Source: a virus | Reading direction: 5' to 3' (one strand) | Virus record (IMG/VR): IMGVR_UViG_3300045988_147113 | Length of the DNA: 58,419 nucleotides | Part shown: in pieces, positions 5,141 to 38,288 of the stretch | How positions within the stretch are numbered: position 1 is the stretch's first letter | How the letters are laid out: each line of letters begins with the position of its first letter | Translations under genes and position numbers: made by a program | The notes under the pieces: generated by a model | Databases searched by the model: none | The model's input: only the letters and a program-made list of their open reading frames with translations | What the model was told of the DNA's origin: nothing

Positions 5141-5164
5141 GATTACTCCTTGTGTATAGATATA

Positions 5165-6114: not shown

Positions 6115-6124
6115 AATTACACCT

Positions 6125-6171: not shown

Positions 6172-6182
6172 GAAATGTCATG

Positions 6183-8591: not shown

Positions 8592-9680
8592 TTATCGAGT
8601 CAAGGAAGCAACCAGATCATTGCTTCCAGGATTCGGCGAAATATAGGGTTCGCCGTTTACCAGCCAGTCGAAATCGCCATACTGCGAAATATCATCTCGT
8701 GCCTCATCGGCGAGATGTTCGTAGTAGGTGTAATCGACTTCGTCTTGTTTGTGACTGTCTCGGAGAACGCTCGATTCCTTCCATCGATAGCCCTTGGTAC
8801 CGGACAGCGCGGCGTAACCGCCGTTGCCGTTGTCGCGAACCAACAGACCTCCACCGCAACCCGGTTGGACCGGACTGAAGGCGCTTACCTTTCCGACGAA
8901 ATCATAGCGATGCTCGTCCTCGGGCAGACCTTCGTTGAAGTCTAGGTAGATCGATGTCGTGGCGGATTTGGTTTCGCAAAGATCCTTGAAATCAATCGTT
9001 TCATGAGAGAACAGCGTCTTGAAGACATATGGTACGGCGAACTGTGCACCCGTTGCCGCCCAACCACCATGCGATGCGGCGTCGTGCCCGTCGTCGCCGT
9101 AACAATGATGGGCGATGTACGTCGCTTTGTTGACGATACACATCTTGTCGTAGATCGCTTCGAGTTCGAAATTGTACCCATATTTTTTACCAAAGTCCAT
9201 AACAAATTGCACGATATACTGGTCGGCATCAGCAATTTTAATGGAGTCGGTTTTTACATGTACAGATACATACCCGAGTTCCATGACTTTTTGCTTAAGC
9301 AAAAGCATAAACAAAGCACCACGTTTAGCGACCATGTTTTCAATATTTCGGTCGTTTGATCTATTTTCAACATCGTTGAATTTCGTTGGAAAATGAGCCG
9401 AAGTCAATCCATAAGTCGAATTGATGACGATCTTCAACGCTTGAGCTAACGACTTGGTGTTTTCGCCTTCTTTAAGAAGCGGAGCTAATGCGCCATCCAT
9501 GCATTTTCGGGCTTTTTCAATTTGACCATGTTTAATGAAAATACGAGCTTTCTTAATATCGCTATACTTTTTAGTATAAGGGCCGAAGAAGTTCATATTC
9601 TCAATGCTTGAAGGATGTAGAGATGACACATCCAACAACGCAACATTGCCAAACATTCCTCCGAGTTTCTGACCGCTCAT
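8592..9680 (-). CDS. Family B DNA polymerase, C-terminal (palm/thumb) fragment
   Basis: Motif A is LLDVSSLHPSS (DxxSLYPS-like), motif B is KIVINSTYG and motif C is VHVKTDSI. Its ATG overlaps the HNH gene stop (ATGA). Confidence 0.8.
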   Translation of the reverse strand: MSGQKLGGMFGNVALLDVSSLHPSSIENMNFFGPYTKKYSDIKKARIFIKHGQIEKARKCMDGALAPLLKEGENTKSLAQALKIVINSTYGLTSAHFPTKFNDVENRSNDRNIENMVAKRGALFMLLLKQKVMELGYVSVHVKTDSIKIADADQYIVQFVMDFGKKYGYNFELEAIYDKMCIVNKATYIAHHCYGDDGHDAASHGGWAATGAQFAVPYVFKTLFSHETIDFKDLCETKSATTSIYLDFNEGLPEDEHRYDFVGKVSAFSPVQPGCGGGLLVRDNGNGGYAALSGTKGYRWKESSVLRDSHKQDEVDYTYYEHLADEARDDISQYGDFDWLVNGEPYISPNPGSNDLVASLTR

Positions 9681-10144
9681 GATTTCTCCACTCGTCGAAT
9701 CGTGAATCCTTTATGTTTTTTGACTTTACCAAGTACAGCCTTCGAAATGTTCGATTTTGTACTATGTAAAGCTTTTGCGCATTCAATTTGGCTATCGAAT
9801 TGTTCTCCAGTTTCAATGATCTCAACCGGATAATGATGACCAGGATGAAGCCCTTCCAAATAAGCATGTTTTAGATTCCTAGAATGAGTAGTCCATTCTA
9901 GGTTATCAACAGCATTATTGGCTTTATCTCCGTCAATATGATTGACTTCGTTCCCCGAATGTTTCGGAATCCAAGTTTCAGCGACCAATCTATGAACGAA
10001 TCCGGCTGAAGTTTGTTGATATCCAGAATCATTAATAAATATTGGAAGCTCTCGGCAATGGCTTTGTCGACAACTCACAATTCGTCCTTTATTGGACACC
10101 AAAATTCTTTGATCTTTCAGCCATTGCCTCCAAAGTTCATCCAT
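9677..10144 (-). CDS. HNH homing endonuclease (NUMOD4-HNH-IENR/NUMOD-like) splitting the polB gene
   Basis: The NHIDGDKANNAVDNLEWTTHSRN HNH core is present. The N-terminal W...LVSNKGRIVS is NUMOD4-like. The gene fills the whole gap between the polymerase fragments. Confidence 0.8.
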   Translation of the reverse strand: MDELWRQWLKDQRILVSNKGRIVSCRQSHCRELPIFINDSGYQQTSAGFVHRLVAETWIPKHSGNEVNHIDGDKANNAVDNLEWTTHSRNLKHAYLEGLHPGHHYPVEIIETGEQFDSQIECAKALHSTKSNISKAVLGKVKKHKGFTIRRVEKS

Positions 10145-10147
10145 GAT

Positions 10148-13123: not shown

Positions 13124-13135
13124 ACCCACTCCTTT

Positions 13136-22227: not shown

Positions 22228-22259
22228 TGTTGTCATTAAAGGCGATGATTCATGCGCGA
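22228..22259 (-). promoter_or_regulatory. Conserved upstream motif, copy 7
   Basis: Minus strand reads TCGCGCATGAATCATCGCCTTTAATGACAACA. Confidence 0.55.
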
Positions 22260-22381
22260 AAAAAAATATAAACGCCATGTCCTGTCTCAGTGGTGGTACG
22301 TGACGTTACAGCTATACTCAACATATCGGATAAATGAGAAGCCGTGTGATTAACGGCTTGTCATTATTAGGATTGATCAAG

Positions 22382-22486
22382 CTAGAACAATCCGCAGACG
22401 ATGAGGACAATCGCAATAACGAATATAGCGATAATGGCGATTGCGCCCCAGACGACGGTCTTGAAAATAGTCTTGATGAGGTCCAT
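22382..22486 (-). CDS. 34-aa hydrophobic mini-protein
   Basis: MDLIKTIFKTVVWGAIAIIAIFVIAIVLIVCGLF, with an AAGGAG RBS and motif copy 8 upstream. Confidence 0.45.
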   Translation of the reverse strand: MDLIKTIFKTVVWGAIAIIAIFVIAIVLIVCGLF

Positions 22487-22508
22487 AATAACTCCTTTGG
22501 TTGATATA

Positions 22509-22542
22509 TAGCTTCTCATTAAGGACCATGATTAATTCGCGA
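22509..22542 (-). promoter_or_regulatory. Conserved upstream motif, copy 8
   Basis: Minus strand reads TCGCGAATTAATCATGGTCCTTAATGAGAAGCTA. Confidence 0.55.
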
Positions 22543-22653
22543 ATACATCATCAAGCTCCTTGCCCAAAAATATAAACCATACGCATCATCGGACAAGAAG
22601 CAAAGCAGATGGCTTTGCTTCTATTGATCATTCCTGATTAGAGGAAATGGTGT

Positions 22654-22740
22654 TCAGTGTTCTTGCGTCAAAGCGACCGCATAGTACTCTCCAGCGAGAG
22701 CAGCGATTGCGATGGCAATGGCGGAAATTCCAGCGAACAT
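22654..22740 (-). CDS. 28-aa hydrophobic mini-protein
   Basis: MFAGISAIAIAIAALAGEYYAVALTQEH, with an AAAGGAG RBS and motif copy 9 upstream. Confidence 0.4.
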   Translation of the reverse strand: MFAGISAIAIAIAALAGEYYAVALTQEH

Positions 22741-22763
22741 AGTTTTCTCCTTTAATGATGGTA

Positions 22764-22796
22764 TGGTTCTCATTAAAGGACATGTTTCATTCGCGA
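22764..22796 (-). promoter_or_regulatory. Conserved upstream motif, copy 9
   Basis: Minus strand reads TCGCGAATGAAACATGTCCTTTAATGAGAACCA. A perfect 10-bp stem forms between 22749..22758 and 22770..22779 and includes the SD. Confidence 0.6.
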
Positions 22797-22807
22797 CTGC
22801 AAATATA

Positions 22808-22837
22808 AAGCCAAAGCCGCATGTGCGACTCTGGCTT
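22808..22837 (-). terminator. Conserved terminator hairpin
   Basis: AAGCCAAAGCCGCATGTGCGACTCTGGCTT, followed on the minus strand by TATATTT. Confidence 0.7.
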
Positions 22838-22842
22838 GATGA

Positions 22843-23097
22843 TCATTCATCAATATACATTTTTTCAGCGATCTTTTTTGCGATTTGATCTCGACGTCCG
22901 TGTCCCCACGTAGTGATGGTTATACACAAGGTTGGATGATCGTAAAATGGATACGTTACTATGGCATGGTTATAGCTCTTTACGTATGGTAAAGAGCCGA
23001 CCACGTTAAGAATCGTGTTCACTTGATCTTGGTCCTTGCAATAGCCATCGGCAGTGAAAGACTCGGTTCGGTTCAAAATCTTGTCGATGATAAGCAT
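22843..23097 (-). CDS. Hypothetical protein
   Basis: 84 aa from the ATG at 23097 (AAAGGAG RBS). Confidence 0.55.
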   Translation of the reverse strand: MLIIDKILNRTESFTADGYCKDQDQVNTILNVVGSLPYVKSYNHAIVTYPFYDHPTLCITITTWGHGRRDQIAKKIAEKMYIDE

Positions 23098-23120
23098 GAT
23101 TACTCCTTTGATATTGTTGA

Positions 23121-23153
23121 ATTTCTTCAATAAAGGACATGTATCATGCGCGA
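23121..23153 (-). promoter_or_regulatory. Conserved upstream motif, copy 10
   Basis: Minus strand reads TCGCGCATGATACATGTCCTTTATTGAAGAAAT. Confidence 0.5.
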
Positions 23154-23161
23154 AAAAAAAT

Positions 23162-23193
23162 AAAGAGCAAGCCGCACATGCGGCTTGCTCTTT
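23162..23193 (-). terminator. Terminator hairpin
   Basis: AAAGAGCAAGCCGCACATGCGGCTTGCTCTTT is a perfect palindromic stem with a T-run on the minus strand. Confidence 0.7.
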
Positions 23194-23403
23194 TCAGACG
23201 AGAGTGATGGTCTTCAGATAATCTGCGAATGCACTCATGTCTTCCAGGTTGGTACTGACCATGATCACCCGAAGCTTCTTTGTCTTGGTCGTAAGAATAC
23301 CGCTCTCCGTTTCCGGATCGCAGTGGTTCTTGATCCACTGAACAAGCTTCAGGCAGGTGTGCTGGCTGTACTGTTGGCTGACATAAGTAAACGTATCGTT
23401 CAT
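23194..23403 (-). CDS. Hypothetical protein
   Basis: 69 aa from the ATG at 23403 (AAGGAG RBS). Confidence 0.55.
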   Translation of the reverse strand: MNDTFTYVSQQYSQHTCLKLVQWIKNHCDPETESGILTTKTKKLRVIMVSTNLEDMSAFADYLKTITLV

Positions 23404-23424
23404 GATTGCTCCTTTATGATAGAT

Positions 23425-23457
23425 TCTCTTGTCATTAAAGGCCATGTACGATTCGCG
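23425..23457 (-). promoter_or_regulatory. Conserved upstream motif, copy 11
   Basis: Minus strand reads CGCGAATCGTACATGGCCTTTAATGACAAGAGA. Confidence 0.55.
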
Positions 23458-23469
23458 TCGAGACAAAAT

Positions 23470-23502
23470 ATAAGAGCCCATGCGCGCGGCATAGGCTCTT
23501 AT
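23470..23502 (-). terminator. Terminator hairpin (ATAAGAGCCCATGCG....GCATAGGCTCTTAT family)
   Basis: Near-identical to the hairpin at 23847..23879. Confidence 0.65.
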
Positions 23503-24567: not shown

Positions 24568-25235
24568 TATATCGGAGGCTCCTGGGAGGCGTATGCTCCC
24601 GGAAGGACGCTGGTGGGTGTGGATGAGAAACATCCACTTAACAGTACTGGCGGAAGCGAGACACATAGTCATAATCCAGGCACTCTTAGTGCACAGGTCT
24701 CGCTTGACGGACAGAACACCGTCGTACGACGTGTCAGGATCCCTGACTTTGTCGGCGATGTTCGACATATTGGCGATATCTATGGCGGTTCATTCAACGC
24801 AACCTGGGGAGCTGCCATCGTCGGACATTCTGACCCCGCGAGCTCGATGGAACCGTATGTCGCCGTTTGTTATTGGCGTAGAATCGCTTAAGCAACACGG
24901 CACCAATAGCATACTGAAATGTAAGGCGGTTCGATTGGCAAAATACCAGCAACCTTGGTTCCGACATGCGTTGATTGGTACTTCCAGTTAATTGGAGCGC
25001 GCATGTCGGCCGATAAACCAGTTCTTACGCTGGCTGATGCATGATAACCACGATTCCATTCAACTTGGATGTTTCCATTTCCATCAATGTGCAGCGCCGT
25101 TGCTAGATCGGTATCTTTTCCGACATCAACGGTTTTCGCACCGCCCTGCTTGTTGAGGGTGAAGTCAGTATCCGTTGCGGACACACCCACCAGCGTCCTT
25201 CCGGGAGCATACGCCTCCCAGGAGCCTCCGATATA
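24568..25235. mobile_element. Invertible DNA segment 1 (intragenic inverton in a tail-fibre tip gene)
   Basis: A perfect 54-bp inverted repeat: 24568..24621 is the reverse complement of 25182..25235. The repeat flanks 560 bp that hold two convergent alternative 3' gene ends. Confidence 0.8.
24622..24891 (+). other. Silent alternative C-terminal cassette for gene 24888..25349
   Basis: It has no own start or RBS. The frame continues the IR-encoded YIGGSWEAYAPGRTLVGV into DEKHPLNSTGGSETHSHNPG...SSMEPYVAVCYWRRIA, a tail-collar-like ending. Confidence 0.75.
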
Positions 25236-25349
25236 GGACGCCGGCGAAGTGTTGGTGGATGTCGCCAGAATCGTGCCGACCGGCCAAAACGTATTACGAA
25301 TCTTCGCAATAAGATGTTGTACGCCTGCCTGATCCAAATATGCAACCAT
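24888..25349 (-). CDS. Tail-fibre tip / receptor-binding protein C (tail-collar-like), current orientation
   Basis: 153 aa from MVAYLDQAGVQHL (ATG at 25349). It ends PPYISVCYWCRVA. The N-terminus is paralogous to gene 25692..26137. Confidence 0.7.
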   Translation of the reverse strand: MVAYLDQAGVQHLIAKIRNTFWPVGTILATSTNTSPASYIGGSWEAYAPGRTLVGVSATDTDFTLNKQGGAKTVDVGKDTDLATALHIDGNGNIQVEWNRGYHASASVRTGLSADMRAPINWKYQSTHVGTKVAGILPIEPPYISVCYWCRVA

Positions 25350-25374
25350 TGTAGGTCTTGCCTTTCCGTGAGGA

Positions 25375-25946
25375 GTCGGCAAAACCGGCGGAGAGAAGAC
25401 GCATAAACATACGTACGGCATTGTGTTCGGTACTAGTTATGGAATGTGTGTATTGACAGACGATCGACCTTCACCACATATTGGTCTCATCGATTATTCT
25501 CTGACCGTTGGCAATCGTATTCGGCGACACGGCATTCCAACTATCAGTACAATCACGAACAGCTTTGCGGATACGGTCTATGGATCATTTGGTGAAAATA
25601 AACAGCTGGCACTTCGAATGAATGAAGCACACACCACGACAAACTCATCAATGGAGCCATATATCGCCGTCTATGTTTGGAGGCGCACCGCTTAAGCCGT
25701 CCTTCGCCAAATATAAACCGCGATATATGGCTGCAAGTTGTTATGCGGTTTGTCGTTTCCGATAGCAATCGTAACTGCGCCAATCCAGTGGGAATCAGCC
25801 CCAGGGGTTGCTAATGTAGCTAAGCGAACACCGTAATCGTGGTCAACGTCCCTAAACAAAGCAGCGCTCGTTCCTGGAGCATGCGAATGTTTTGCTAATT
25901 CATCAATAGTTAGTTTATGCGTCTTCTCTCCGCCGGTTTTGCCGAC
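25375..25946. mobile_element. Invertible DNA segment 2 (intragenic inverton in the second tail-fibre tip gene)
   Basis: A perfect 34-bp inverted repeat: 25375..25408 is the reverse complement of 25913..25946. The repeat encodes VGKTGGEKTHK in frame on both arms and flanks 504 bp with two convergent 3' ends. Confidence 0.8.
25409..25695 (+). other. Silent alternative C-terminal cassette for gene 25692..26137
   Basis: The frame opens after the TGA at 25369..25371 and reads GVGKTGGEKTHK-HTYGIVFGTSYG...SSMEPYIAVYVWRRTA. No RBS or start context. Confidence 0.75.
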
Positions 25947-26137
25947 GGTGAAGTCTGTATCGGTGTCCGATGCAGAGACCATTACTCGTCCCTGCGCATA
26001 GCGTTCCCAGGTGCCACCGAATAAACTCGCCGGGGACGTGCTGTCAGTGCTGAAATAGAGAGATCCAACGGGCTGGATCCGGTCAAGAACCTTCCTGACT
26101 AGATACCGAGCCCCCCCTCGTCAAGATAAGCTACCAT
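25692..26137 (-). CDS. Tail-fibre tip / receptor-binding protein B (tail-collar-like), interrupted by a frameshift at a G7 run
   Basis: The ATG at 26137 follows AGGAGG. It reads MVAYLDEGG and then stops at 26099..26101. The -1 frame continues ARYLVRKVLDRIQPVGSLYF...GGEKTHKLTIDELAKHSHAPG...NLQPYIAVYIWRRTA and is collinear with gene C. Confidence 0.65.
26111..26117 (-). other. Homopolymeric G7 (C7 on the plus strand) slippery or phase-variable tract
   Basis: It reads G GGG GGG in the zero frame. An eighth G, or a -1 slip, restores the full-length fibre-tip ORF. Confidence 0.8.
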
Positions 26138-26161: not shown

Positions 26162-26833
26162 TCAAATTCTGAAGAAACCGTCGATTGTGTTGTTAGAAAT
26201 CGAGCCGATCGCATCGAGTTTCGCTTTATCGCCTTTAGACATCAAACCGTCTTTTGACGGTGTTGCGAGACCGATGGCTCCGGTGACGTTGCTCGAGAGA
26301 CCGTCGAGTTTCTTCTTGTCTGCTGCCGACATAAGGCCATTAACCGACTGAGTGGCTACGGAGTATGTCGTGTTGTTGTCCGGAGGGACAGCCCATGTAC
26401 CGTCGCTTCTCAGATAGCGGTTGTTCTCACCTGTTGCCGGAGCAGGAACAAGGCCAGCCTTTCCAGCTGCCGATGTCGTTGCCCCTCCCATGTTTCCGTA
26501 AGTCGTATCCTGCGTGGTGAACGTCGATGCCGTGCCGTTGCCTTTGGTCACCGTGACCGTGCGGCCGGATGCGGTGACGGACTTCACATACGTCGAGGCG
26601 ATGTTCTGACCGACGGAATCGTTGGTGGCGGCATTGGCGTTGGCGACGGCTGACGTGATATCGCTGCCCGGATGCTTGTGGCTTTTAGGAGCGAATATGC
26701 CGGTGAGAACGCTCTTCAACACGGACCACAACACGATTCGAGTGCCTGCGGTGCCCTGCGTCGAGTCGATGATGAAACAGTCGGAATCAGCCGGTGCTCC
26801 GGTGATCTTGGTATAACTGTTGATTCGCGCCAT
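26162..26833 (-). CDS. Tail fibre protein
   Basis: 223 aa. It carries the typical fibre motifs LRSDGTWAVP, NGLMSAADKKKLDGL and DGLMSKGDKAKLDAI. Confidence 0.7.
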   Translation of the reverse strand: MARINSYTKITGAPADSDCFIIDSTQGTAGTRIVLWSVLKSVLTGIFAPKSHKHPGSDITSAVANANAATNDSVGQNIASTYVKSVTASGRTVTVTKGNGTASTFTTQDTTYGNMGGATTSAAGKAGLVPAPATGENNRYLRSDGTWAVPPDNNTTYSVATQSVNGLMSAADKKKLDGLSSNVTGAIGLATPSKDGLMSKGDKAKLDAIGSISNNTIDGFFRI

Positions 26834-26845: not shown

Positions 26846-27754
26846 TCAGGATTCGACCCACTGGGTCACTCCGGAAGCACCGGGCTCCCAGACATTGCCG
26901 GACACCGTTGAAGCCCATCGCTTGCCATTATGACGCACCACGGCACCTTCGGCATAGGCGTTGTTCGCATCGGTCGGCTGAGTCCACTCGGAGACGGCGT
27001 CACTCTTCAATGTCCAACCGTCGACTCCGGGTTCGTGCATGTTGTAGTCCTCATTGGAGGACCACTGCTGATCATCATGCATGACGACGGCCGCTGAATC
27101 ATACGCGTTCTCCGCGCTGTTCGGCTGAATCCATCGTGCGACCCCATCGACCGGCTTCGTCAGATCCATCCACTTGTCGGTAGCCGCATCAGGAACCGTG
27201 TTGGCCGAGACATCACCATGGGCCTGATACAGGCTCTGCTGATAACGGACGATGTCGTTTGCAATGTATGTCTTCGACGCGTCCCAGTTCGGGAGAATCG
27301 CTGCGACCTGCATCAGTTCGTCCGTGGATAGAGACGGAGCGATTTTCTGCACAATGAGACGAATCGCCGACTTTTCAGCGGCCGCAACAGCCGCACTGGC
27401 CTGGGCGTCTGCCTTCTCCTTGGCGATCTTATCGAGTTCTTCAGCGGTATACGGGATGTATCGCTGGATCTCCTCCTGTTCATCCCAGGCTTCCTTGGCT
27501 TCAACGCCTGGGACATCAATGATGGTCTTTACATCCTTGCCGAAGACGATCTTATGACCGTCCTCATCGAGAACCGGAGTGCCATCCGGACCAGTCTCAT
27601 AGTATTCTTTAAGCACCTCGACATGGGATACTTCCTCGACGCCTTCAACAGCGTCGTGATGGACGGTAATGGTCTCGTCAACGAGCTTGCCGGCGTTTAG
27701 ATCAATGTCTTCCAGCTTGAGTTCGTTCCCGTGTGCATCGAGAATTCTTGTCAT
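26846..27754 (-). CDS. Tail protein with three CBM5/12-like carbohydrate-binding repeats
   Basis: The C-terminal repeats are Y.A.D.V.Y....Y......P....W, YDSAAVVMHDDQQW...EPGVDGW and YAEGAVVRHNGKRW...EPGASGVTQW. Confidence 0.55.
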   Translation of the reverse strand: MTRILDAHGNELKLEDIDLNAGKLVDETITVHHDAVEGVEEVSHVEVLKEYYETGPDGTPVLDEDGHKIVFGKDVKTIIDVPGVEAKEAWDEQEEIQRYIPYTAEELDKIAKEKADAQASAAVAAAEKSAIRLIVQKIAPSLSTDELMQVAAILPNWDASKTYIANDIVRYQQSLYQAHGDVSANTVPDAATDKWMDLTKPVDGVARWIQPNSAENAYDSAAVVMHDDQQWSSNEDYNMHEPGVDGWTLKSDAVSEWTQPTDANNAYAEGAVVRHNGKRWASTVSGNVWEPGASGVTQWVES

Positions 27755-28407: not shown

Positions 28408-29661
28408 TCAGATGAATCCCTCATTGATGGTACTGCCGTAATTATCCAGCACGTAATTGCCGTACGAATCCTCAAGTGCATCGATGCCTTCGGTGGAAAA
28501 CGGCGTGAACGTCGGGTATTCACGGTAACCGTTATCGTCCTCATTACGAACGTACTCGGTGATACGTGCGGTCTTGTTGACACCGTAGGTGTTATCGAAC
28601 TGGATGATGTCGCCGATATCATAGTCGCGATGATACCGAACCGAGCCAAGTAAAGCGATTTCGGCATCGAACGAGTCGTTGGATTTCTGCGCTTTCAATT
28701 CGTCTCGGCCGTACTTTTCCAATTCAGGATATATGTCGTGGTCGGGACGAGGATGGTTATCAGCATCATTCAACTTAACGTCGGAATCCGTATAGAACGT
28801 TTCCCGGATGTCCCAACCAGAACGACCGGAGTTGTTCGGCACGTATTTGATCAGACGACGGGTCACGTTATCCTTGGTCTCCTCTGTCGAGGCGACATAT
28901 GCCGAATTGAAGAATTCGGTATCATCTTCAGTGGTATCTGAAGAGATAAGATTGTCGAATCTCGGCGAAAAGACCATATAGGGGTTCTTGATCTGTTCAT
29001 ATGAACGATCGGCACCTTCGAGAACCGAAAACGACAGATAGGACGATTGCCAATGATCATCGGACTTCAGATCGAGAGAGAACCCCAAGTCATAAGTATC
29101 GCATATCGTCTTGATGGCATCATAGACGTAATCGCCATCGAATTCGAAGGTTTTCCTGTACTTCGGATCCAGTGGTTGTGAATTATCGGTTGCTATTTTG
29201 AAGTTCGGAATCTTTCGTGCAGGTTCCGAAGGTTTGATGATGTTTTCGTTCAATATCGTCTTGATGATCTCTCGAGGATCGACAGATTCATACTTGACTT
29301 TCTTCGGAATCACACGTCGAAGCAGCAACGATTCAAGCGAACGGCCGGAGATAACCAATTGATCGCCATCTTCGATGTCCGTACTTAGTTCGGTTTTCTC
29401 AATGATCATGACGTCATTACGAGTCTCGATCTTTCGACCATTTTTATCAAGTACAGGAGGTTCGATCAGCCATAGATAAAAGCCTCGAGGAAACATGTTG
29501 ATATTTGCCATAGAAGCTGGGAGGTAGAGTTCGAAGTCGCCATACCCAGAATATCGTTCAGTCCAAATGAGTGAACTGAACGTATCACATAAGCTGACGA
29601 CTTCGAAACTCTTATCGAGCACGAACAGCTGCATGGAACGTTTGTTTAACTGTTCAGCCAT
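28408..29661 (-). CDS. Tail-associated protein (ReqiPepy6 Gp37-like / Tal-like)
   Basis: 417 aa. The N-terminus is LFVLDKSFEVVSLCDTFSSLIWTERYSGYGDFELYLP. It lies directly after Dit. Confidence 0.6.
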   Translation of the reverse strand: MAEQLNKRSMQLFVLDKSFEVVSLCDTFSSLIWTERYSGYGDFELYLPASMANINMFPRGFYLWLIEPPVLDKNGRKIETRNDVMIIEKTELSTDIEDGDQLVISGRSLESLLLRRVIPKKVKYESVDPREIIKTILNENIIKPSEPARKIPNFKIATDNSQPLDPKYRKTFEFDGDYVYDAIKTICDTYDLGFSLDLKSDDHWQSSYLSFSVLEGADRSYEQIKNPYMVFSPRFDNLISSDTTEDDTEFFNSAYVASTEETKDNVTRRLIKYVPNNSGRSGWDIRETFYTDSDVKLNDADNHPRPDHDIYPELEKYGRDELKAQKSNDSFDAEIALLGSVRYHRDYDIGDIIQFDNTYGVNKTARITEYVRNEDDNGYREYPTFTPFSTEGIDALEDSYGNYVLDNYGSTINEGFI

Positions 29662-29667: not shown

Positions 29668-30597
29668 TCACACTCCTGTATACAACGTTTCGTTCTCGAT
29701 TGACATCCTGATATTATCAACACCCGAATCAGCGGAATACACGATGGTGTTCGCACCTTTATGCAACGTGATGAATCTCACATCTCGATTGATGGCGTTG
29801 AGAATGTTATACGAGATACCGTCTCGTATAATTTCAACTGATTTCTGCTTTGGAATGGTACAAATAACCAATTCGTCGCCGGATTTGATACCATCGGGGA
29901 TGATCTGTCGGACCTTATCCGTAAAGACGTCGATCTCCTGACCGGCCTCTTCATTGTAGATGCGAATATTATTCGCCGGGCCATCAAATGACATACGGAT
30001 GATCACGCCGACTTCGGATTCGCCATCATAGACGATGTTTTTCGAATGCATATTCTGAATGGCACCAAACCACAATGGTTTAGGTTCATTCACCGGATTA
30101 TTTGCCCAGTTGAATGGGAATTCGAATACCGGTTCGACATTGGAAAAAGAGGTGACCCTATTCAACTCGTTGTCGATCCTGAACCATGGGTCAGGACATT
30201 TGATGACGATGGATGACGACTCTTTTTCGGAAAATAACGAAACGTCATTCGATTCGACGATGCCGGTCGTAAGAACCGAACGAGTGTCGGCATGAAACAC
30301 CAAGGTGACTTCCTCTTTTTCGGGAAAATACTTGTATGTTCCATGCCGAAGGTCCTCAATGTTCTTACCCGATTCCGGATAATACGCGAGGTTGATGGTA
30401 ATCTCGCGTTCGTCCTTACGGGCACCATTGAAGATCACACCATCGGTGGTGACGGTATTGCTGGTTTGAAGCACGGCATCGACCGGTCCGAGACCGTCAA
30501 TGGCGACGACGTTATAGCCAGTCGCCATTGGGTTTCGGATGGGGAGATCGAGCGTGTCGCCACGAGCATTCGTAACAGTCATAGACTGAAACATCAT
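29668..30597 (-). CDS. Distal tail protein (Dit, siphovirus tail component)
   Basis: 309 aa, immediately downstream of the TMP with a 4-nt overlap. The N-terminus is typical of Dit. Confidence 0.65.
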   Translation of the reverse strand: MMFQSMTVTNARGDTLDLPIRNPMATGYNVVAIDGLGPVDAVLQTSNTVTTDGVIFNGARKDEREITINLAYYPESGKNIEDLRHGTYKYFPEKEEVTLVFHADTRSVLTTGIVESNDVSLFSEKESSSIVIKCPDPWFRIDNELNRVTSFSNVEPVFEFPFNWANNPVNEPKPLWFGAIQNMHSKNIVYDGESEVGVIIRMSFDGPANNIRIYNEEAGQEIDVFTDKVRQIIPDGIKSGDELVICTIPKQKSVEIIRDGISYNILNAINRDVRFITLHKGANTIVYSADSGVDNIRMSIENETLYTGV

Positions 30598-33500
30598 CGA
30601 CCTCCATTTCGATTCATTTGCTCGAATTGACGGAACTGCGTACGGGTCTGCTTGTAGATATCATAACGACTGAGCGCCTTCGGAGAAGTGTTGTTCTGCG
30701 TGAAGTCGTAGTTGTTGATGATCTGCTGAGGGGTCTTCTCAACACTTTCGGCAGCACGACCGGCATCCCTCTGGCGAGGCATCGCAGTGATCTTGTCGAT
30801 CATCTTGGACGAATATCCGATGCCAACTGTGTCGGACAGCATGGAATTCAGATATGCGGCTTGACCCTCGACGACCGATAGATCCATCACCGGAGTGATG
30901 GTCGGATTGACATCGAATTCCGGAATATCGAGCTTGCCGATGTTGCTCAACGAGGAATCGACAACGTCGATGCCGCTCGTCATCATGGTCTTTGCGGCTC
31001 GAACAACTCCACCGACATTGTCGGCGATGCCGTTCTCCAAGCCCTTGTCGAACCACATACCGACCTTGGCCATGACACGTGACGGCGATTTGATCTTGCC
31101 TGCTTCCTTAGCTGCCTCAACAGCATTCGACACGGCATCTGCTGCGGCCTGGCTGACAACACCGGAATTGCGTGAGATACCCACGGCCAAACCGACTGCC
31201 AGATAGGAACCGGCACTCTCGAAGCTTCCCCGATATGCACGAGCACCGTTGACAGCGGCACTCAGCGCGTTATTGAAGATGCCCGAAAGATTGCCGATAC
31301 CAGAACGCATGCCGCTGCCCAGACTGTTCGCCAAACTACGTCCCTCTTGCGAGAAACGACCGTTGTACGAGGAAATCGCCTGAGCGACCAGGTTGAGACC
31401 GGTACGAGTGGCTCCGATTATCGGCGTGAACGATGCCTGCCAGATCGAAGCGAAACCGCTCAACCAAGTGGCGAGAGCATTCAATGCCGAACGGATCTGG
31501 TTTGCTCCAGAATTCGCAGCACTTGCAGCGGCACTCATCTGAGACGAGAGATTACCGCTCAGATTGATACCACTGAAAGCGGAATTCAGGGCATTCACGG
31601 ATCCGGTCAAGGTCGTTGTGCCAGTGCTCAACGCCGTGTTCAACTCGGACAGACCAGTGCTAATGGAACTATTGGCATTTTGAATGGCCCTGACCAGAGA
31701 CATGAACGATGTCGCGGCGAGCGTGGACACGGCTTGCTGGAACGCCGTGACTCCGCCATACTCGGCAGGCATTCCGCCCATGACCTTGGACAACGAACCA
31801 ACGGCACTGACGCTGGCCGAAATATTCGAGAAGTCCAGTCCAGCTACATGGGATGTGTAGTTCGACAATCCGACACCAAGCTGAGTAGCAGCCGTGATGA
31901 ATCCGACCGATGTACCTTCCATCTTCATGCCGCCAAGACCGTTGACGACATTGATTAACGAACGCAATGGAGCGAACGTCGGTGTGATGGCATCCGGAGC
32001 CACCTCGGAAACGGCGTTGTAGTATCCAGCCAGACCGTTGCCGAGCTGTGTTGCAGCAGCCTTTATGGGACCGAAATCGCCGACCTGACTGAAGTCGCTC
32101 TTCAGAATCTCGGTCAACGACTTAACTGCCGGAACAGTGTTCTGAATGGCTCCGACGTTGACATCATCACCGGATACGGCTTTGCCATATCCGGCAAGTG
32201 CCTCGCCGAGACCCTTCAGGCCTTCAGTGAGCGTGCCCCAGTTCTTACCACCGACAATCTTCTGCCACCAACCGTCATCAGAAGGAACGTTCTGAAGTAC
32301 GTTGTTCAGCGTCTTAACGGCTGGAACCGTCTTCTGAATGGCTTCAATATTGACGCCGTCTCCGGAGATGGCTTTGCCATATCCAGCAAGCGCCTTACCC
32401 ATTCCAGTGAGTCCGGTGGACAGCGTGCTCCAGTCCTTGCCACCGGCGATCTTCTGCCACCAGCCGTCATCGGAAGGAACAGCATTCAGCACACCGTTCA
32501 ATCCGTTGAGTGCTTCGATAGAAGCACTTATCGGTCCGGGCTGAAGTCCAGTCACGGTAATACCGTACATCTTCAACGCCATGCCCATTTGGACGAGGCC
32601 GTTGGATAAGGTGCTCCAGTCCTTACTACCGGCAATCCTCTGCCAAAGCCCATCGTCGGCAGGAAGCGCATTCAGCACTTGTGTCAATGCTTGAGCAGCC
32701 ATGGCAGACGACACGATGGATGCTGAATCCAAATCAGCAACCACTGCGGAGTAGTCTTTTAATGCTTGGCCAAGCGGTACCAGCTTGGTTCCGAAATTCT
32801 CAATACCATCGCCACCGGTTATGAAACTGGTGATGGCATCGAGAAGATTCGAAGCCGTGAGCTTGAGCACCACATTAGCCAAAGTATCAACTGCCGTTGC
32901 GACAGAGCCATCGATCTCTTTGGCTCCGGCAATGAATGGCTTCAGATTGGTCATGAAGTTGGACAAACCGGTAGCCAATGCCGGCAGCGAACTTCCAATC
33001 GCTCCCATGATGGCACCGGTAATAGCACCGGCAATGGATCCGATGAATCCGCCAAGTGCGGCTCCGATCTTCGCCATGAACGCAGCGCCTTCAGACACTA
33101 ACCAGTCGACGCCGGGTATCTGCTTAATGGCACCAGCGGCAACGACGATGGCAGAGAGACCGGCGATGAAGGTCGCCAAAGCGGTGACGCCACTCATAGC
33201 GGCACCGACGTTGATCAGGCTCATGATCGCTGCCGTTGCGGATATGGCCAGAATGGTTCCGGACAACGACGCTGCGATGGTGCCAACGCTGTCGATGTTC
33301 ATGGCGGACATCAGTCCGAAGACCAATGCCAACTCGGTCAGGATTGCAGCCATTGCCGAGCCGACAGCCAGAACACCGAGGACGTTCTTCTTCGCGGTCT
33401 CCATGATCTTGAATGCGCCGGTCATGGCGATCAAGGCCGTGGATAGCGATACCGCCGATGCCACGGTGTTGACTGGATTCAGCAGATTCATGAGCGCGAA

Positions 33501-36500
33501 GACACCGGTAAGGGCTGTCATGAGCCCGATCATGGTGCCGCCAACCATCAGTGCTCCAATGACATCTTTCTTCATCTTTGCCAACGCCTTGAATATCAAG
33601 GCCATGACTCCAACGGAAAGAAGTAGCGAAGTAAGCACCGATGGATCGAGATTGCGTATCGAATCAGCGATGGCAGTGAATATGGCGGTCATGATATTGC
33701 CAAGAGCTGCTGTAATCTCCGGAGCATGACCGGCCACGGCGTTAAGCGCTGCAACCAGAATGGTTACAAGACTGTCGGTGATGGTGTCAGCGTGTGCGGC
33801 AACCACCTGCAATATCTTATCGATCATTGCTACGACGGTTTCGGCGACTGCCGGAACTTGCTGGACAAGCCACGCCATAAGATCCCTGAGAATCGATGAC
33901 AACGCGTCAAGAATCTGAGGCAAAGCAGCCACGATCACCTGAAGAACGCCGATCAACGCGGTCACCAAAGACTTCGCCAATGCCGGAATGAACTGAATCA
34001 GAGCGTCGAGCGCCGTCGCCAGAATGCCACCGGCAGCGGACCCGGTGGCTGCGAGAGCGGTGAGGCCAGCTCCGGCAAGTGCCATGCCGGCGCCGATGGC
34101 GAGGCAGGCGAGACCGAACACGCCCATGGCTTTGGCGACTGCCATAAGCTCTGCGGCCATCGGGCCGAGAACCGTGCCTGCGAATCCGAGTCCGAGAAGA
34201 GCCCCATAGAATCCAGTCAACCCAGTAATGAGCTGCTTAAGATCCATCGATCCCATAAGACGGATGGCGACGGCAAGGACCGTGATTCCAGCGGCGAATG
34301 CCATCATCCCTGCGGCTTGACCAGCCATGTTGTTGGGCATGAGATTCATGGCCGCAACCATACCCGCTAAAGCCAAACCGAAACCGCTGAGACCCTTGGC
34401 CAGACTATTCAGATCCATTCCGCCAAGGACCTTGATCGGAATGGTCAATGCAACAGCCGCCGTGGCAAATGACAATATAGCGGCTGAAGCCATCAGCATT
34501 CCGGCAAATTGGCCATTGAACTTGCTGAATAGTGCCATGGCTCCGGCGAAGGCGCCGAGGGTGATGACCAAAGCGCCGACGCCTTTGGCGAGGTCATCAA
34601 GATCCATGCCGCCGAGCACCTTGATCGGGACCGCAAGAAGCACCATGGCGGTCGCGAATGCCATGATGGCCGCTGCGGACTTCCCATAACTGCCGCCTAT
34701 ACCTTGGATATAACCGAGTCCGGCCATCGCGCCGGCGAGGACGCCCAAGCCAATCGCTATCGAACCGAGACCCTTAGCAAGATCATCAAGGTCCATAGTG
34801 CCAAGGATCTTGACCGCGGCGGCAAGAGGAATCAGAGCCGTCGCCATCAAGAGAATATTCTTGCCGACACCGGAATAATCAGCACCGAATTTCGCACCGG
34901 CGCCAAGACCGCCCATGGCTGTGGTCAGAAGAACGATGCCCAGTGCGACGGCATTCATGGAACGCGCAAGGTCATCGGGTTTGACGCTCGCAATCATGAG
35001 AATAGCTCCGGCGAGCACGGCCAAGGAGGAAGCCATCAATATGAATCCAGTGCCCAACTTAATCATGTTGGTGCCGACGGCATTCAGTCGTTCTGGCTTG
35101 GCCGTTCCCATCAAAGCGATTGATCCGCCGAGAGCGACGATCGCAGTGGCCATCGAACCAAATATCACTGCGATTTGCGCTGGATCCATGTCCTTGAGCA
35201 TATAGGCGGCTTCAGCCATAAGCTTCATGGAAGCGCCAAGCGCCACCATGGCCAAAGCGACCTTATTCAACGCATCGAAATCAAAGACCAGTTTTCCGGC
35301 TTTGTTGGTTACTTCTGCCAAAGCAGCAAGTCCAGTCATCATGCCGGTCATGACGGCAATGATGGCGGTCATGGCGCCAAGCGCCGGCATGATCTTTTCG
35401 GTCCTAATGGTCGACAATTGTGTTAAGGCGTCAGCAAGCAAGTTGATCGATGCGGCAATAGCGGCGATCGAAACGATCTTGAACGACTTGGCGAAATCCT
35501 TAAATGAATTACCGATATCATCGAGAGTCTTCTTCAGAGCGCCTTTGAAGGTCGACTTCTCAAGATCATCGCCAACTTCATTGAGTCCCTTGATGAACTT
35601 TCTAAGACCGACGAGAACGCCAGTCAATAAACCACCATTGATCAACGACAGAATCTGATCGAGGGTGATCTTACCGTTAAGATCGCCGAAGAATCGCTGA
35701 ATAGCTTCTCCGATTTCCCGAACACGATCGCCAATCCAATCAAATACCGGTTGAAGCGATTGCACTGCCGAAGCGATCTTATCCGAAACCTTCTGAGCGA
35801 TATCAGGAACGGTTCCGAATTTATCTTGGAATGCCTGTTGGAATTCGATACCGTATCGATCGACTTCTTTAGTCCAATCGGCCAAGGCGTTGCTGATAAT
35901 ACCGAGAATATCGGGGAATCCAGAAGAGCCCTTCTTTAAGCCATCAAACATGCCATCGAATACACCACTGATGGATTTGCCAATGGTTTCGACGACGGTT
36001 CCAAGCGACGAGAATGCAGATTCCCAGAATTTAATAAGATTGGTAACAACCTGAGATTGTCGAACGTATGCAGCAAATGCTCTGGCACCATCAATAACCG
36101 ATGAAGCGATATTAATGAATGCTCCAGAGATTTTTCCAGCAAAGCCAAGCAATACACCGAAGCCCTTGGCTACCAAACCAACAGCACCGAGAAGTGCCTT
36201 AAATGCTGTCGCCACAACCTTGGTAGTTGTTCCAATGACATTCAGCAACTGAGGCGAAGGCTTCAGCCCTTCGGTGAACTTGCGGAAAGCTTCAGTAAGT
36301 GCATAAATGGTATCACCACTCATGCTAGGCATGACTTCGTCCCAAGCCTTGCCCACCGCCTGAATGATCGTCTTCAGGGAATTCCAAACATTAGCTAGGC
36401 CCTGAATGACATTCTCTCGACCGGACATCCGCTGCATTTTGTTGGCGAAATCATCAGCGGAAATACTGCCATTTTGAAGACCTGCATTGAGTGCGTTTAG

Positions 36501-38288
36501 TTGGTTGATCTGCGCATTAGTGATGCCGAGATTCTGTTTCTTCGCATCGTCATAGCCGTTAACCTCTTGGGTCAAGCGGTTAACGCTATCTTTCAGAATA
36601 TTAGCGTTGACCCATCCTTTTCGCAACGACTTCTCAAATGAGCCGTATTCCTGAATGGCAGCACTTGCTCCGGCACCGGCTGCGTCTCCGGTCTCCTTTA
36701 ATATGTCATTAAATCGCTGGGTATCGACAATTCCTTGATTCACCAGCTGCTTGTATCCGGACGAGAACCCGGAAGACAGTAACTGGTTTCGAGCCTGCGA
36801 TTGGGCGTTGATGATGTTATTGATCTCGTCGGAAACACCGGTCCACAGATCCTTGGCTTCTTCGAAATCACCAAACAGGATTTGCATCGACTGAGCCCAA
36901 CCCGAACCGACTGCTTCCTTGGCGGTATCAATAAGCTGCGAGAATGTCTTGACCTTGGTCGCGGCATCCTGAGCGGTCTGGGCGAGCTGGACAAGCTGAC
37001 GAGCTTCTTCCTCGGTGTAGCCCTTGGAGACGAGCGACTGAACGGCCTTCTCGACATCAGTGATGTCCATGGCTAGGATGTTCAGCGACTGGGTCAGAAC
37101 ATCCGAAGTCAGCCAACCCTTCTGAAGTGAATCACGGAATGAACCCTCAGCAGCGATATACTTCTTAGCACCAGTTCCGAGTTTCTCAGAAGTCTGAACC
37201 AACAGATCCTGGAATACCTGACCACCCATACCGGCGTTGACAACAGAGTTCCAATCCATCAGCTTCACGGTTCCAGTAGCCAGAGCCTGGGATAGCTGAT
37301 ACATAGCGGTCGAGGCCTGAGCAGAACTTGAACCAGAAATGGCCGCGAGGTTGGCGATACCCTTGATCGAGTTCACCGAAGTTTGCAGATCAACACCGGC
37401 AGCTGTGAACGTACCGATGTTCCTGGTCATTTCAGTGAAATTATAAATAGTCTTATCAGCGTAGGTATTAAGCTGATTCAGAGCGGTATTGACCTGAGTG
37501 AGATTGGTTCCCTCCTTCTGGGTGTTGGCAAGAATGGTCTGAACCGAGTTCAGCTGAGTCTCATACTCTTCGAAACCGCTACGAATGCCATTGGTCAGAT
37601 TACTGGCAAGTTGCATGCCATACGTAGCAGCTTTGGCCGCAAGATTGCCCATGGCAACAACGCCGATGGCCTCAAGGGCCTTGAAATGCGGTTGAACCGC
37701 ATCAAGCTGCTCGCCGATAGGTGTGGCCTTGAAGGTATTCACACCGTCCATCAAGGAATCCCTCATGGAAGAGATTCCCATTTTGACGTTTTCAACGCCC
37801 TTCTGAATCGGGCCCAAATCGACACGATTGGCCGCATCATTGATACCATCAATCGCGTCAACGGTTTGTTGAATACCGACAGTATTGGTGCCGATCTTTC
37901 CGATTGCAGAGTTTGCTTCAGCGGCAGACTGCTGCACCTGATCGGACATCTTGTTCGCAGCGGATGCGACACCGGTTAAATTGACGTTATCGGAAGCGGC
38001 GCCAATCTGTTGAACACTCTTCTGAGCGCTCGAACCCATCTCAGCAAAGTTGTCAGCCGCTTTTGACGTGGCTTTGCTGACATCCCTTTGCATATCAGAT
38101 GCGGACTTGGAGACACTATCAAACTTGACTTTCTTGGCAGCTTTATCGAGCTCTTCAAACGACTTGGTGTCGCTGAAATTGAACGCTTTCTTGAGCTGCT
38201 CCAAAGCCTTGGTAACACGAGATACGCCTTGCTGCAAGGACGAATCGTCCATGGACAGCTTGACCACACGTTCGTCGATGTTAGCCAT
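30594..38288 (-). CDS. Tail tape-measure protein (2564 aa)
   Basis: A giant Ala/Gly/Leu-rich ORF with hydrophobic tandem repeats. It lies between the chaperone-like genes and Dit. Confidence 0.85.
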   Translation of the reverse strand: MANIDERVVKLSMDDSSLQQGVSRVTKALEQLKKAFNFSDTKSFEELDKAAKKVKFDSVSKSASDMQRDVSKATSKAADNFAEMGSSAQKSVQQIGAASDNVNLTGVASAANKMSDQVQQSAAEANSAIGKIGTNTVGIQQTVDAIDGINDAANRVDLGPIQKGVENVKMGISSMRDSLMDGVNTFKATPIGEQLDAVQPHFKALEAIGVVAMGNLAAKAATYGMQLASNLTNGIRSGFEEYETQLNSVQTILANTQKEGTNLTQVNTALNQLNTYADKTIYNFTEMTRNIGTFTAAGVDLQTSVNSIKGIANLAAISGSSSAQASTAMYQLSQALATGTVKLMDWNSVVNAGMGGQVFQDLLVQTSEKLGTGAKKYIAAEGSFRDSLQKGWLTSDVLTQSLNILAMDITDVEKAVQSLVSKGYTEEEARQLVQLAQTAQDAATKVKTFSQLIDTAKEAVGSGWAQSMQILFGDFEEAKDLWTGVSDEINNIINAQSQARNQLLSSGFSSGYKQLVNQGIVDTQRFNDILKETGDAAGAGASAAIQEYGSFEKSLRKGWVNANILKDSVNRLTQEVNGYDDAKKQNLGITNAQINQLNALNAGLQNGSISADDFANKMQRMSGRENVIQGLANVWNSLKTIIQAVGKAWDEVMPSMSGDTIYALTEAFRKFTEGLKPSPQLLNVIGTTTKVVATAFKALLGAVGLVAKGFGVLLGFAGKISGAFINIASSVIDGARAFAAYVRQSQVVTNLIKFWESAFSSLGTVVETIGKSISGVFDGMFDGLKKGSSGFPDILGIISNALADWTKEVDRYGIEFQQAFQDKFGTVPDIAQKVSDKIASAVQSLQPVFDWIGDRVREIGEAIQRFFGDLNGKITLDQILSLINGGLLTGVLVGLRKFIKGLNEVGDDLEKSTFKGALKKTLDDIGNSFKDFAKSFKIVSIAAIAASINLLADALTQLSTIRTEKIMPALGAMTAIIAVMTGMMTGLAALAEVTNKAGKLVFDFDALNKVALAMVALGASMKLMAEAAYMLKDMDPAQIAVIFGSMATAIVALGGSIALMGTAKPERLNAVGTNMIKLGTGFILMASSLAVLAGAILMIASVKPDDLARSMNAVALGIVLLTTAMGGLGAGAKFGADYSGVGKNILLMATALIPLAAAVKILGTMDLDDLAKGLGSIAIGLGVLAGAMAGLGYIQGIGGSYGKSAAAIMAFATAMVLLAVPIKVLGGMDLDDLAKGVGALVITLGAFAGAMALFSKFNGQFAGMLMASAAILSFATAAVALTIPIKVLGGMDLNSLAKGLSGFGLALAGMVAAMNLMPNNMAGQAAGMMAFAAGITVLAVAIRLMGSMDLKQLITGLTGFYGALLGLGFAGTVLGPMAAELMAVAKAMGVFGLACLAIGAGMALAGAGLTALAATGSAAGGILATALDALIQFIPALAKSLVTALIGVLQVIVAALPQILDALSSILRDLMAWLVQQVPAVAETVVAMIDKILQVVAAHADTITDSLVTILVAALNAVAGHAPEITAALGNIMTAIFTAIADSIRNLDPSVLTSLLLSVGVMALIFKALAKMKKDVIGALMVGGTMIGLMTALTGVFALMNLLNPVNTVASAVSLSTALIAMTGAFKIMETAKKNVLGVLAVGSAMAAILTELALVFGLMSAMNIDSVGTIAASLSGTILAISATAAIMSLINVGAAMSGVTALATFIAGLSAIVVAAGAIKQIPGVDWLVSEGAAFMAKIGAALGGFIGSIAGAITGAIMGAIGSSLPALATGLSNFMTNLKPFIAGAKEIDGSVATAVDTLANVVLKLTASNLLDAITSFITGGDGIENFGTKLVPLGQALKDYSAVVADLDSASIVSSAMAAQALTQVLNALPADDGLWQRIAGSKDWSTLSNGLVQMGMALKMYGITVTGLQPGPISASIEALNGLNGVLNAVPSDDGWWQKIAGGKDWSTLSTGLTGMGKALAGYGKAISGDGVNIEAIQKTVPAVKTLNNVLQNVPSDDGWWQKIVGGKNWGTLTEGLKGLGEALAGYGKAVSGDDVNVGAIQNTVPAVKSLTEILKSDFSQVGDFGPIKAAATQLGNGLAGYYNAVSEVAPDAITPTFAPLRSLINVVNGLGGMKMEGTSVGFITAATQLGVGLSNYTSHVAGLDFSNISASVSAVGSLSKVMGGMPAEYGGVTAFQQAVSTLAATSFMSLVRAIQNANSSISTGLSELNTALSTGTTTLTGSVNALNSAFSGINLSGNLSSQMSAAASAANSGANQIRSALNALATWLSGFASIWQASFTPIIGATRTGLNLVAQAISSYNGRFSQEGRSLANSLGSGMRSGIGNLSGIFNNALSAAVNGARAYRGSFESAGSYLAVGLAVGISRNSGVVSQAAADAVSNAVEAAKEAGKIKSPSRVMAKVGMWFDKGLENGIADNVGGVVRAAKTMMTSGIDVVDSSLSNIGKLDIPEFDVNPTITPVMDLSVVEGQAAYLNSMLSDTVGIGYSSKMIDKITAMPRQRDAGRAAESVEKTPQQIINNYDFTQNNTSPKALSRYDIYKQTRTQFRQFEQMNRNGGR

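Follow-up and report, generated by a model that had tools for sequence, protein, structure and literature searches.

The viral genome IMGVR_UViG_3300045988_147113 (IMG/VR; 58,419 nucleotides, the entire stretch analyzed here, hereinafter the window) raises the question of whether two inverted repeats in the last gene of its tail module form a DNA inversion switch that exchanges the C-terminal part of a predicted tail tip protein and, if so, how such a switch could be flipped in a phage that appears to encode no recombinase. The element in question, denoted inverton 1, is embedded in tip gene A; a second element of the same kind, inverton 2, is embedded in the adjacent paralog, tip gene B. Comparison of assemblies indicates that inversion of the 560-base pair (bp) segment of inverton 1 is real, and the locus is probably a working inversion switch in the last tail gene of a virulent siphovirus that operates by homology-dependent exchange.

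The two arms of inverton 1 (IR1-L and IR1-R, the left and right inverted repeats; Table 1) are 100% reverse-complementary over 54 nucleotides (nt), with 560 nt between them, as had been claimed in an earlier note on this DNA. In the whole 58-kb window, a segment is enclosed by perfect inverted repeats of 24 nt or longer in only two places, at this pair and at the 34-nt pair of inverton 2; by our own estimate, a perfect inverted repeat of 54 nt would be expected by chance about 1e-23 times in 58 kb. Six-frame translation agrees with the earlier note that both arms are codon-aligned, each encoding YIGGSWEAYAPGRTLVGV; the peptide MLPEGRWWV, which the note took as independent confirmation, does occur in both open reading frames (ORFs) but is the same arm translated in another frame. 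Gene A (25349 to 24888, minus strand) encodes 153 amino acids (aa), of which 38 are constant, 18 are repeat-encoded and 97, contributed by the cassette denoted M1, are variable. The opposing silent cassette, P1, belongs to a frame that starts directly after a TAA codon, crosses the arm and continues as a tail of 89 aa, which has the C-terminal motif of M1 (…EPYVAVCYWRRIA); the stop codons of P1 and M1 overlap within the palindrome GCTTAAGC. Such a pair of convergent frames, one with a fused 97-aa tail and the other with an alternative 89-aa tail, had been described in the note and agrees with the translation. The further statement that P1 lacks both a ribosome-binding site and a start codon holds for the former and needs a small correction for the latter: there is an in-frame GTG at 24613 within the arm, with no ribosome-binding site, and because of this codon gene callers report a 92-aa ORF in the silent frame. 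A scan for promoters and terminators yielded nothing beyond the shuffle expectation that would account for the silencing.

As a separate observation, the cassettes of each inverton meet with their stops overlapping in the palindrome GCTTAAGC (24886-24893 and 25690-25697). Given that the convergent cassettes abut in this way, each inverton is a quasi-palindrome, and the invertons perhaps arose when the 3' end of a gene was duplicated in inverted orientation.

The evidence of inversion comes from assemblies compared between genomes, with the orientation read for each contig. A search of the protein collection started with the flipped product, i.e., the constant part joined to the P1 tail, retrieves real proteins of 145 aa, with full-length identities of 94%, 92%, 90% and so on, together with many 92-aa proteins that correspond to the silent ORF of the window's own state. 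The best match comes from contig L141 (scaffold_324 of ENA ERZ28636380, 56.7 kb), in which the segment is reversed between colinear flanks of 99.0-99.6% identity, and the flipped junctions predicted by the earlier note are present. The arms of L141 are exactly those of the window, gene A (145 aa) combines the constant part with the P1 tail, and the silent copy, itself intact, is of the M1 type, which bears out the proposal that inversion exchanges the C-terminus and leaves the constant N-terminus intact. End-to-end reversal of inverton 1 is found also between L005 and L112 (571 of 571 nt, 86% identity) and between L109 and L025. For inverton 2, the orientations are opposite in L011 and L015 (98.6-98.8% identity; flanks, 96-97%), in L006 and L102, L021 and L114, and L018 and L021, and in the window and L113. 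In L113, inverton 1 has the window orientation and inverton 2 is reversed and, therefore, the two invertons flip independently. Overall, orientation differs among genomes that are 96-99% identical, without any phylogenetic pattern. With arms located in coding sequence, an opposed silent partial copy, and both orientations among genomes this close, the locus has the properties by which gene-altering inversions are recognized.

Table 1. Features of the two invertons in the window and segments aligned with contig L141
Feature	Window position	Strand	L141 position	Identity	Remarks
IR1-L, left arm of inverton 1	24568..24621	+			Encodes YIGGSWEAYAPGRTLVGV; in-frame TAA 24565-24567 directly 5'; L141 arm identical
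Silent cassette P1	24622..24891	+			89-aa alternative C-terminus DEKHPLNSTGGSETHSHNPGTLSAQVSL...MEPYVAVCYWRRIA and stop (24889-24891); no constant part or ribosome-binding site
Cassette M1, now joined to gene A	24888..25181	-			97-aa C-terminus SATDTDFTLNKQGGAKTVDVGKDTDL...PPYISVCYWCRVA and stop; silent copy in L141
IR1-R, right arm of inverton 1, within tip gene A	25182..25235	-			Perfect complement of IR1-L
Constant N-terminal part of tip gene A (MVAYLDQAGVQHLIAKIRNTFWPVGTILATSTNTSPAS)	25236..25349	-			ATG at 25349; 88-100% identity among relatives
IR2-L, left arm of inverton 2, 34 nt	25375..25408	+			Encodes VGKTGGEKTHK; frame opens after TGA 25369-25371
Silent cassette P2 of gene B	25409..25695	+			HTYGIVFGTSYGM...MEPYIAVYVWRRTA
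Cassette M2, now joined to gene B	25692..25912	-			LTIDELAKHSHAPGTS...LQPYIAVYIWRRTA
IR2-R, right arm of inverton 2, within tip gene B	25913..25946	-			Perfect complement of IR2-L
Constant N-terminal part of tip gene B (gene A paralog)	25947..26137	-			ATG 26137 behind AGGAGG; frame broken by G7 as assembled
Poly-G run G7, codons 7-9 of gene B	26111..26117	-			Out of frame in the window
Aligned segment	28349-25913		1-2436	99.3%	Colinear
Aligned segment	25375-25946		2403-2975 (573 nt)	96.5%	Reversed, inverton 2
Aligned segment	25408-25182		2942-3168	99.6%	Colinear
Aligned segment	24568-25235		3115-3782 (668 nt)	94.3%	Reversed, inverton 1
Aligned segment	24621-21913		3729-6438	99.0%	Colinear

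Assembly graphs are ambiguous at inverted repeats, and several contigs terminate at the arms, as might be expected if a mis-joined or chimeric contig at the repeat had produced an artefact of assembly. Given, however, that about 45 independent contigs, which come from various samples and assemblers (SPAdes NODE, MEGAHIT k119/k127/k141 and IMG), have the same architecture, with all cassettes in frame, this explanation was rejected, its probability being negligible. With regard to the contig ends themselves, IMG contig 145772 starts at IR1-R and stops at IR1-L, without the 560 bp; the ends of L107 and L120 fall in IR1; L140, an assembly of the window strain (99.94%), starts precisely at the inner end of IR2-L; and two same-strain assemblies break at the left arm of inverton 2. 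Ends of this kind are to be expected because assemblers break where both orientations coexist; as a sign that both orientations are present, they are suggestive only.

Perfect arms are found at the same two gene positions in most relatives, with lengths of 26-68 nt for the IR1 type (18 loci) and 25-36 nt for the IR2 type (33 loci). In all loci, every cassette, fused or silent, is open and continuous with the arm and ends in the motif PY[VI].V.[YI]W.R.A, with the exception of a few deleted forms (gene B of L026 and L001). At least six tail types were identified for gene A and about 10 for gene B, nearly all of which are fused in some phages and silent in others. For example, P1-type tails are silent copies in the window, L025 and L113, and are fused to the constant part in L104, L109, L118, L141 and protein clusters P0001-P0014. 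Tail types also shift between gene A and gene B. The possibility, raised in the earlier note, that P1 is a decayed remnant is at odds with its open frame, the C-terminal motif of the family, the end-to-end match to PF21939 when fused and the expressed form found in many assemblies. Because silent cassettes that stay intact in all lineages would require regular expression, these cassettes appear to be functional and regularly expressed.

The same comparison bears on a different scenario, namely, that the arms are conserved junctions for cassette swaps between co-infecting phages, with inversions being rare accidents and each population fixed. This would account for the mosaic cassettes that are common to several phages and even to genes A and B, for the lower identity of the inverted segments of L141 (94-96%, vs 99% in the flanks), and for the presence of a single cassette with one arm in L001 and L102. 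It is hard to reconcile, however, with orientations that differ in 96-99% identical genomes without a phylogenetic pattern, with silent cassettes whose integrity in all lineages calls for regular expression, and with independent assemblies that break exactly at the arms (145772 at both ends, L107, L120 and L140), and accordingly appears quite improbable.

Family PF21939 (T4 gp10 C-terminal domain) matches all four products end to end, with 58.8 bits for A-M1, 94.9 for B-M2, 51.8 for A-P1 and 71.3 for B-P2, the Pfam cut-off being 27 bits; the E-value is 1.4e-15 for A-M1 (profile positions 3-139 of 139) and 2.2e-13 for the fused A-P1. A search of the PDB with a profile of the four products identifies 5hx2_G, T4 gp10 residues 446-602, with E = 1e-13. 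AlphaFold2 models of the window gene A product and of P0001 (P1-fused), built from a 53-sequence alignment, are poor, with mean predicted local distance difference test scores of 53 and 51, and values below 50 in the variable halves. The fold family (gp10/gp12-type) and the location of genes A and B, which come last in the tail module, suggest that their products form the host-contacting, receptor-binding tip, in which case the switch would be predicted to alter the host range.

The locus consists of two neighboring two-cassette switches, inverton 1 and inverton 2, the second of which is combined with a homopolymer tract. Gene B opens with MVAYLDEGG, after which the G7 run shifts the frame; an eighth G would restore a frame that crosses the 34-nt arm (VGKTGGEKTHK), ends at the stop at 25692 and is clearly paralogous to gene A. 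In the approximately 40 relatives, in-frame states of the G-run (G8, G5 and interrupted, fixed 8-nt versions) occur along with out-of-frame states (G7, including the window, G6 and G9); L011 (G8) and L015 (G6) are 96-98% identical to each other. This pattern looks like slipped-strand on/off phase variation or else a mixed population. Two further observations concern gene B. In L141 (2367-2843, equivalent to P2 of the window, near 25660), the P2-type cassette fused to gene B is frameshifted close to its 3' end, with …TTKKLINGAIYRR… in place of …TTKNSSMEPYIAVY…; gene B is thus doubly broken in this contig, and the frameshift could be either decay or a second slippery homopolymer. A reduced inverton 2, with one cassette between 26-nt arms, is present in L001 (9665-9978) and L026 (4169-4438); in L001, the cassette is directed away from gene B, which ends just past the arm, an arrangement that resembles an on/off rather than an either/or switch.

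Positions 1-119 and 58301-58419 of the window are identical and, given this 119-nt end overlap, the window is a circular assembly, i.e., a closed, complete genome of 58.3 kb, with every gene on the minus strand. The tail module includes, in order, the tape measure protein (30594-38288), Dit (29668-30597), a Sipho_Gp37 protein (28408-29661), two fibre-like proteins (one with CBM_5_12, 26846-27754), a 223-aa protein (26162-26833) and the small paralogs B and A. No close cultured phage relative of the window was found, and about 45 related contigs of 30-62 kb, mostly from the human gut, were collected from IMG/VR, ENA and other public assemblies. The closest match of the 933-aa RNA-polymerase-like protein of the window is from Bifidobacterium phage BitterVaud1 (50.7%), followed by Streptomyces, Arthrobacter and Gordonia phages; the nearest relative of the tip protein is also from BitterVaud1 (38%). 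The lysin combines GH25, CW_7 and LysM, and the nearest phages with a named host are those of B. asteroides (41%); the large terminase is 68% identical to terminases of Streptomyces and Rhodococcus phages. Judging from these similarities, the window probably represents a human-gut actinophage, a siphovirus of virulent type, with Bifidobacterium as the likely host; we know of no cultured virulent phage of Bifidobacterium. A scan of 185,579 bacterial and archaeal genomes yielded distant matches in Bacillota metagenome-assembled genomes only, with no prophage copy, inverton or host clue. In viral loci L027-L081, in BitterVaud1 and in a few bacterial-genome matches, the tip genes are present and the inverted repeats are absent; therefore, the switch is clade-specific.

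Pfam and PHROGs scans covered about 43 ORFs, namely the minus-strand ORFs of at least 150 aa and two plus-strand ORFs, with the core structural genes (tape measure, capsid, portal, terminase and Big_2) left out. Among these ORFs, there was no serine or tyrosine recombinase, transposase or reverse transcriptase, and none matched PF00589 or an integrase PHROG; the serine-recombinase catalytic motif [YA]xRxS[TS]xxQ is found in no frame of the window. As judged by these searches, this complete genome contains no recognizable recombinase gene. No phage single-strand annealing protein was recognized either, and the recombination-related genes that were detected encode a Cas4-like exonuclease (phrog_3953) and a single-stranded DNA-binding protein (PF24083, 6305-6832). 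A diversity-generating retroelement was also considered and rejected: no reverse transcriptase family was found on the scanned ORFs, and the repeats are inverted and identical rather than adenine-mutated and direct.

Sites recognized by known invertases were sought as well. The gix/hix-type site spans 26 bp, with the dyad core AAACC-NN-GGTTT; allowing up to two mismatches, this consensus core is absent from all four arms, and its genome-wide count equals chance. The rix site TTCCCTAACCC was not found with up to one mismatch, and the 8-bp site CAGGGTTA is missing from the arms, the single copy in the window, at 5105, being far off and matching the chance count. When IR1 and IR2 were compared by eye, the only common motifs were TCGG-N5-CC and AAGRACG-like fragments, which are within chance.

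At interior arm positions, non-consensus states occur in both arms in 22 cases for IR1 and 23 for IR2, vs 3 and 2 cases, respectively, in one arm alone. The sites of concerted change include outermost ones (IR1 position 4 and IR2 position 3) and inner ones (IR1 positions 39, 42 and 48); many of these changes are synonymous, and IR1 position 42 has three alleles, each of which is found in both arms. Concerted changes along the whole arm cannot be explained by a single fixed crossover point, which could not copy both sides, but can be explained by gene conversion of a heteroduplex that extends over the arm. The C-terminal peptide motif of the convergent tails, which is equally conserved, is only about 79% complementary at the DNA level and, therefore, protein constraint alone does not account for the perfect arms. 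The inner end of arm identity shifts with the cassettes present. Taken at face value, these sequence patterns suggest that gene conversion between the arms maintains their identity and that strand exchange depends on homology rather than on a dedicated site-specific invertase.

Several observations weigh against this conclusion. Across phages, the arm cores (34 nt in IR1 and 27 nt in IR2) vary less than nearby synonymous sites, as would also be the case for a protein recognition site, and the outer arm ends are fixed in all phages. Arms of 25-54 bp are short for RecA-type recombination, and the proteins of unknown function could conceal a novel recombinase. Furthermore, two assemblies of the window strain cross inverton 1 in the window orientation, and no record matches the silent-M1 ORF that this exact strain would have in the flipped state.

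The near-invariance of the arm cores, in phages that vary at flanking synonymous sites, and the fixed outer boundary fit also the possibility that the same switch is flipped in trans by a site-specific invertase of the host or of a co-resident prophage, which would recognize the conserved core. There is a precedent in the approximately 500-bp inverted locus, without a flanking recombinase, of the tRNA-Met Bifidobacterium prophages (PMC6109161), and global invertases exist, e.g., Mpi of Bacteroides, as mentioned by way of citation in the same paper. Nevertheless, IR1 and IR2 share no convincing common motif; the arms contain no gix/hix-like dyad, TTCCCTAACCC or CAGGGTTA; the concerted changes at outermost and inner positions could not result from one fixed crossover point; and a virulent phage would need the enzyme to be present in every host strain. 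Flipping in trans is the main alternative, although we consider it rather less likely.

Returning to homology-dependent exchange, the switch could operate as follows. Gene A has a fixed 5' part (25349-25236) followed by the 54-bp stretch, of which an inverted identical copy lies 560 bp downstream, with two convergent promoterless 3' ends between the arms. Recombination in the arms would flip the 560 bp, such that one N-terminus is joined to either the M1 or the P1 C-terminal half of the T4 gp10-C-type domain. The second switch (25375-25946) would do likewise for paralog B, itself toggled by the poly-G run. The candidate routes are host RecA-type recombination and template switching during phage replication, perhaps with assistance from the phage Cas4-like exonuclease and single-stranded DNA-binding protein. 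In its full extent, the hypothesis, which is offered tentatively as one that may well prove wrong, is that a virulent phage, probably of Bifidobacterium, performs programmed host-range switching without a dedicated recombinase, by means of perfect coding repeats of 25-68 bp that are kept identical by gene conversion and flipped by general homology-dependent recombination or replication template switching; two switches and a poly-G tract would then provide at least 2 x 2 x on/off tip combinations from 1.6 kb.

The systems that are most familiar in this context are the G segment of Mu (Gin), the C segment of P1 (Cin), the P element of e14 (Pin) and Min of p15B. As in the locus described here, inversion determines which of two convergent 3' parts follows a constant 5' part, the arms are located within coding sequence, and a change of host range is expected. 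In contrast to that group, in which a serine invertase gene adjoins the segment and the crossover site is of the gix/cix type, there is no such gene beside the segment or in the genome, and no such site; the segment is only 560 bp long, with no chaperone gene; the phage is a virulent-type actinophage rather than a temperate enterobacterial phage; and two independent switches lie side by side on paralogs. The parallel with Mu G and P1 C that was drawn in the earlier note is therefore valid for the constant part with alternative C-termini but does not extend to an invertase gene or a gix-like site. Shufflons (Rci of R64 and Rin) have an adjacent tyrosine recombinase that lacks the arm-binding domain, at least three cassettes, and repeats of 11-19 bp in both orientations; here, there are two cassettes per switch, no tyrosine recombinase among the scanned ORFs and no rix site. 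The Rin shufflon of Bifidobacterium prophages (PMC6109161) resembles the present case in that inversion varies the C-terminus of a tail receptor-binding protein, probably in the same host genus, but it consists of several tandem cassettes with 11-bp rix sites and an adjacent tyrosine invertase, as opposed to two cassettes per gene and perfect arms of 34-54 bp without rix or a recombinase.

The nearest described system is the inverted locus of the tRNA-Met bifidoprophages 689b-1 and Bb423phi2, a recombinase-less locus of about 500 bp for which an invertase acting in trans has been proposed (Mavrich et al. 2018, PMC6109161). Like the invertons described here, it encompasses a small ORF and the 3' end of a structural gene, is inverted between relatives and has no flanking recombinase; unlike them, it has the 8-bp site CAGGGTTA and genes of unknown function in temperate phages, compared with co-evolving arms of 34-68 bp, gp10-C-type genes and no integrase. 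Gene-altering programmed inversions (Milman et al. 2023, PMC9881135) share the intragenic inverted repeats, the size asymmetry between gene and silent fragment, and the tail fibre and tail collar targets, but have been described in bacterial chromosomes and prophages, usually with a recombinase nearby, whereas the window is a free genome of a virulent-type phage. In Anabaena cyanophages (bioRxiv 10.64898/2026.02.14.705889), both isomers of an invertible region of about 30 kb with repeats of 400-700 bp likewise occur among close relatives without a phylogenetic pattern, and recombinase-free isomerization is discussed; that region, however, is tens of kb long, with ten-fold longer repeats and no recoding of genes. 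In Campylobacter Fletchervirus phages, genes for receptor-binding proteins contain poly-G tracts that, going by their mention in PMC12633550, are comparable with gene B alone, in that a tail gene has, close to its start, a G-run of variable length that shifts the frame; the two cases involve different groups of phages and hosts, and here the tract is joined with an inversion switch in the same gene. A 2026 methods paper describes candidate viral invertons in general, and the literature searches found no description of this clade or of its double switch.

Several other features of the window lie outside the invertons. The primase-polymerase gene (phrog_4210; 8592-13129) is in two pieces, an N-terminal part (10148-13129, profile positions 6-949) and a C-terminal part (8592-9680, profile positions 953-1291), separated by a free-standing HNH endonuclease gene (9677-10144). 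The 933-aa protein (53519-56320) contains several helix-turn-helix domains and matches phrog_4291 ("RNA-dependent RNA polymerase", 1062 bits) and, weakly, PF05183; its homologs in Streptomyces, Arthrobacter, Gordonia and Curtobacterium phages are annotated as helix-turn-helix proteins only and adjoin a Cas4-like exonuclease, as is the case in the window (56334-57131). This protein may be a phage two-barrel RNA polymerase. Five copies of a direct repeat of about 44 nt (…TCATTAAAGG.CATG…TTCGCGA…) are located 5' of small membrane-protein genes, and a GC-rich hairpin, AAAGCCAAAGCCGCATGTGCGACT, recurs scattered over the early and middle regions (positions 22229-23471 and, for these repeats taken together, also 6857, 7175, 18402, 21758, 22807 and 23170); these are likely to be repeated promoter and terminator units. 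A dense cluster of TGTGTAACGTTTGTGTGACAAAA inverted repeats occupies positions 1-320, just within the opening point of the circular assembly, and a 78-nt unit with internal hairpins is duplicated in 53005-53200; either might serve as an operator or origin element.

Since Mu and P1, inversion switches of tail fibres have been standard textbook content and, to our knowledge, are known almost only from temperate enterobacterial phages with their own invertase. What is new here is the logic of the Mu G segment in a whole clade of abundant gut phages of a Gram-positive host, duplicated, combined with a homopolymer switch and lacking an enzyme gene. The implications extend to host-range prediction and to the assembly of gut phages, given that contigs break at the arms, and the cassette types make up a natural library of exchangeable tip domains. 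If flipping is driven by homology, searches for invertons that demand a nearby recombinase would miss such switches, and any phage could gain one by a simple inverted duplication of the end of a gene.

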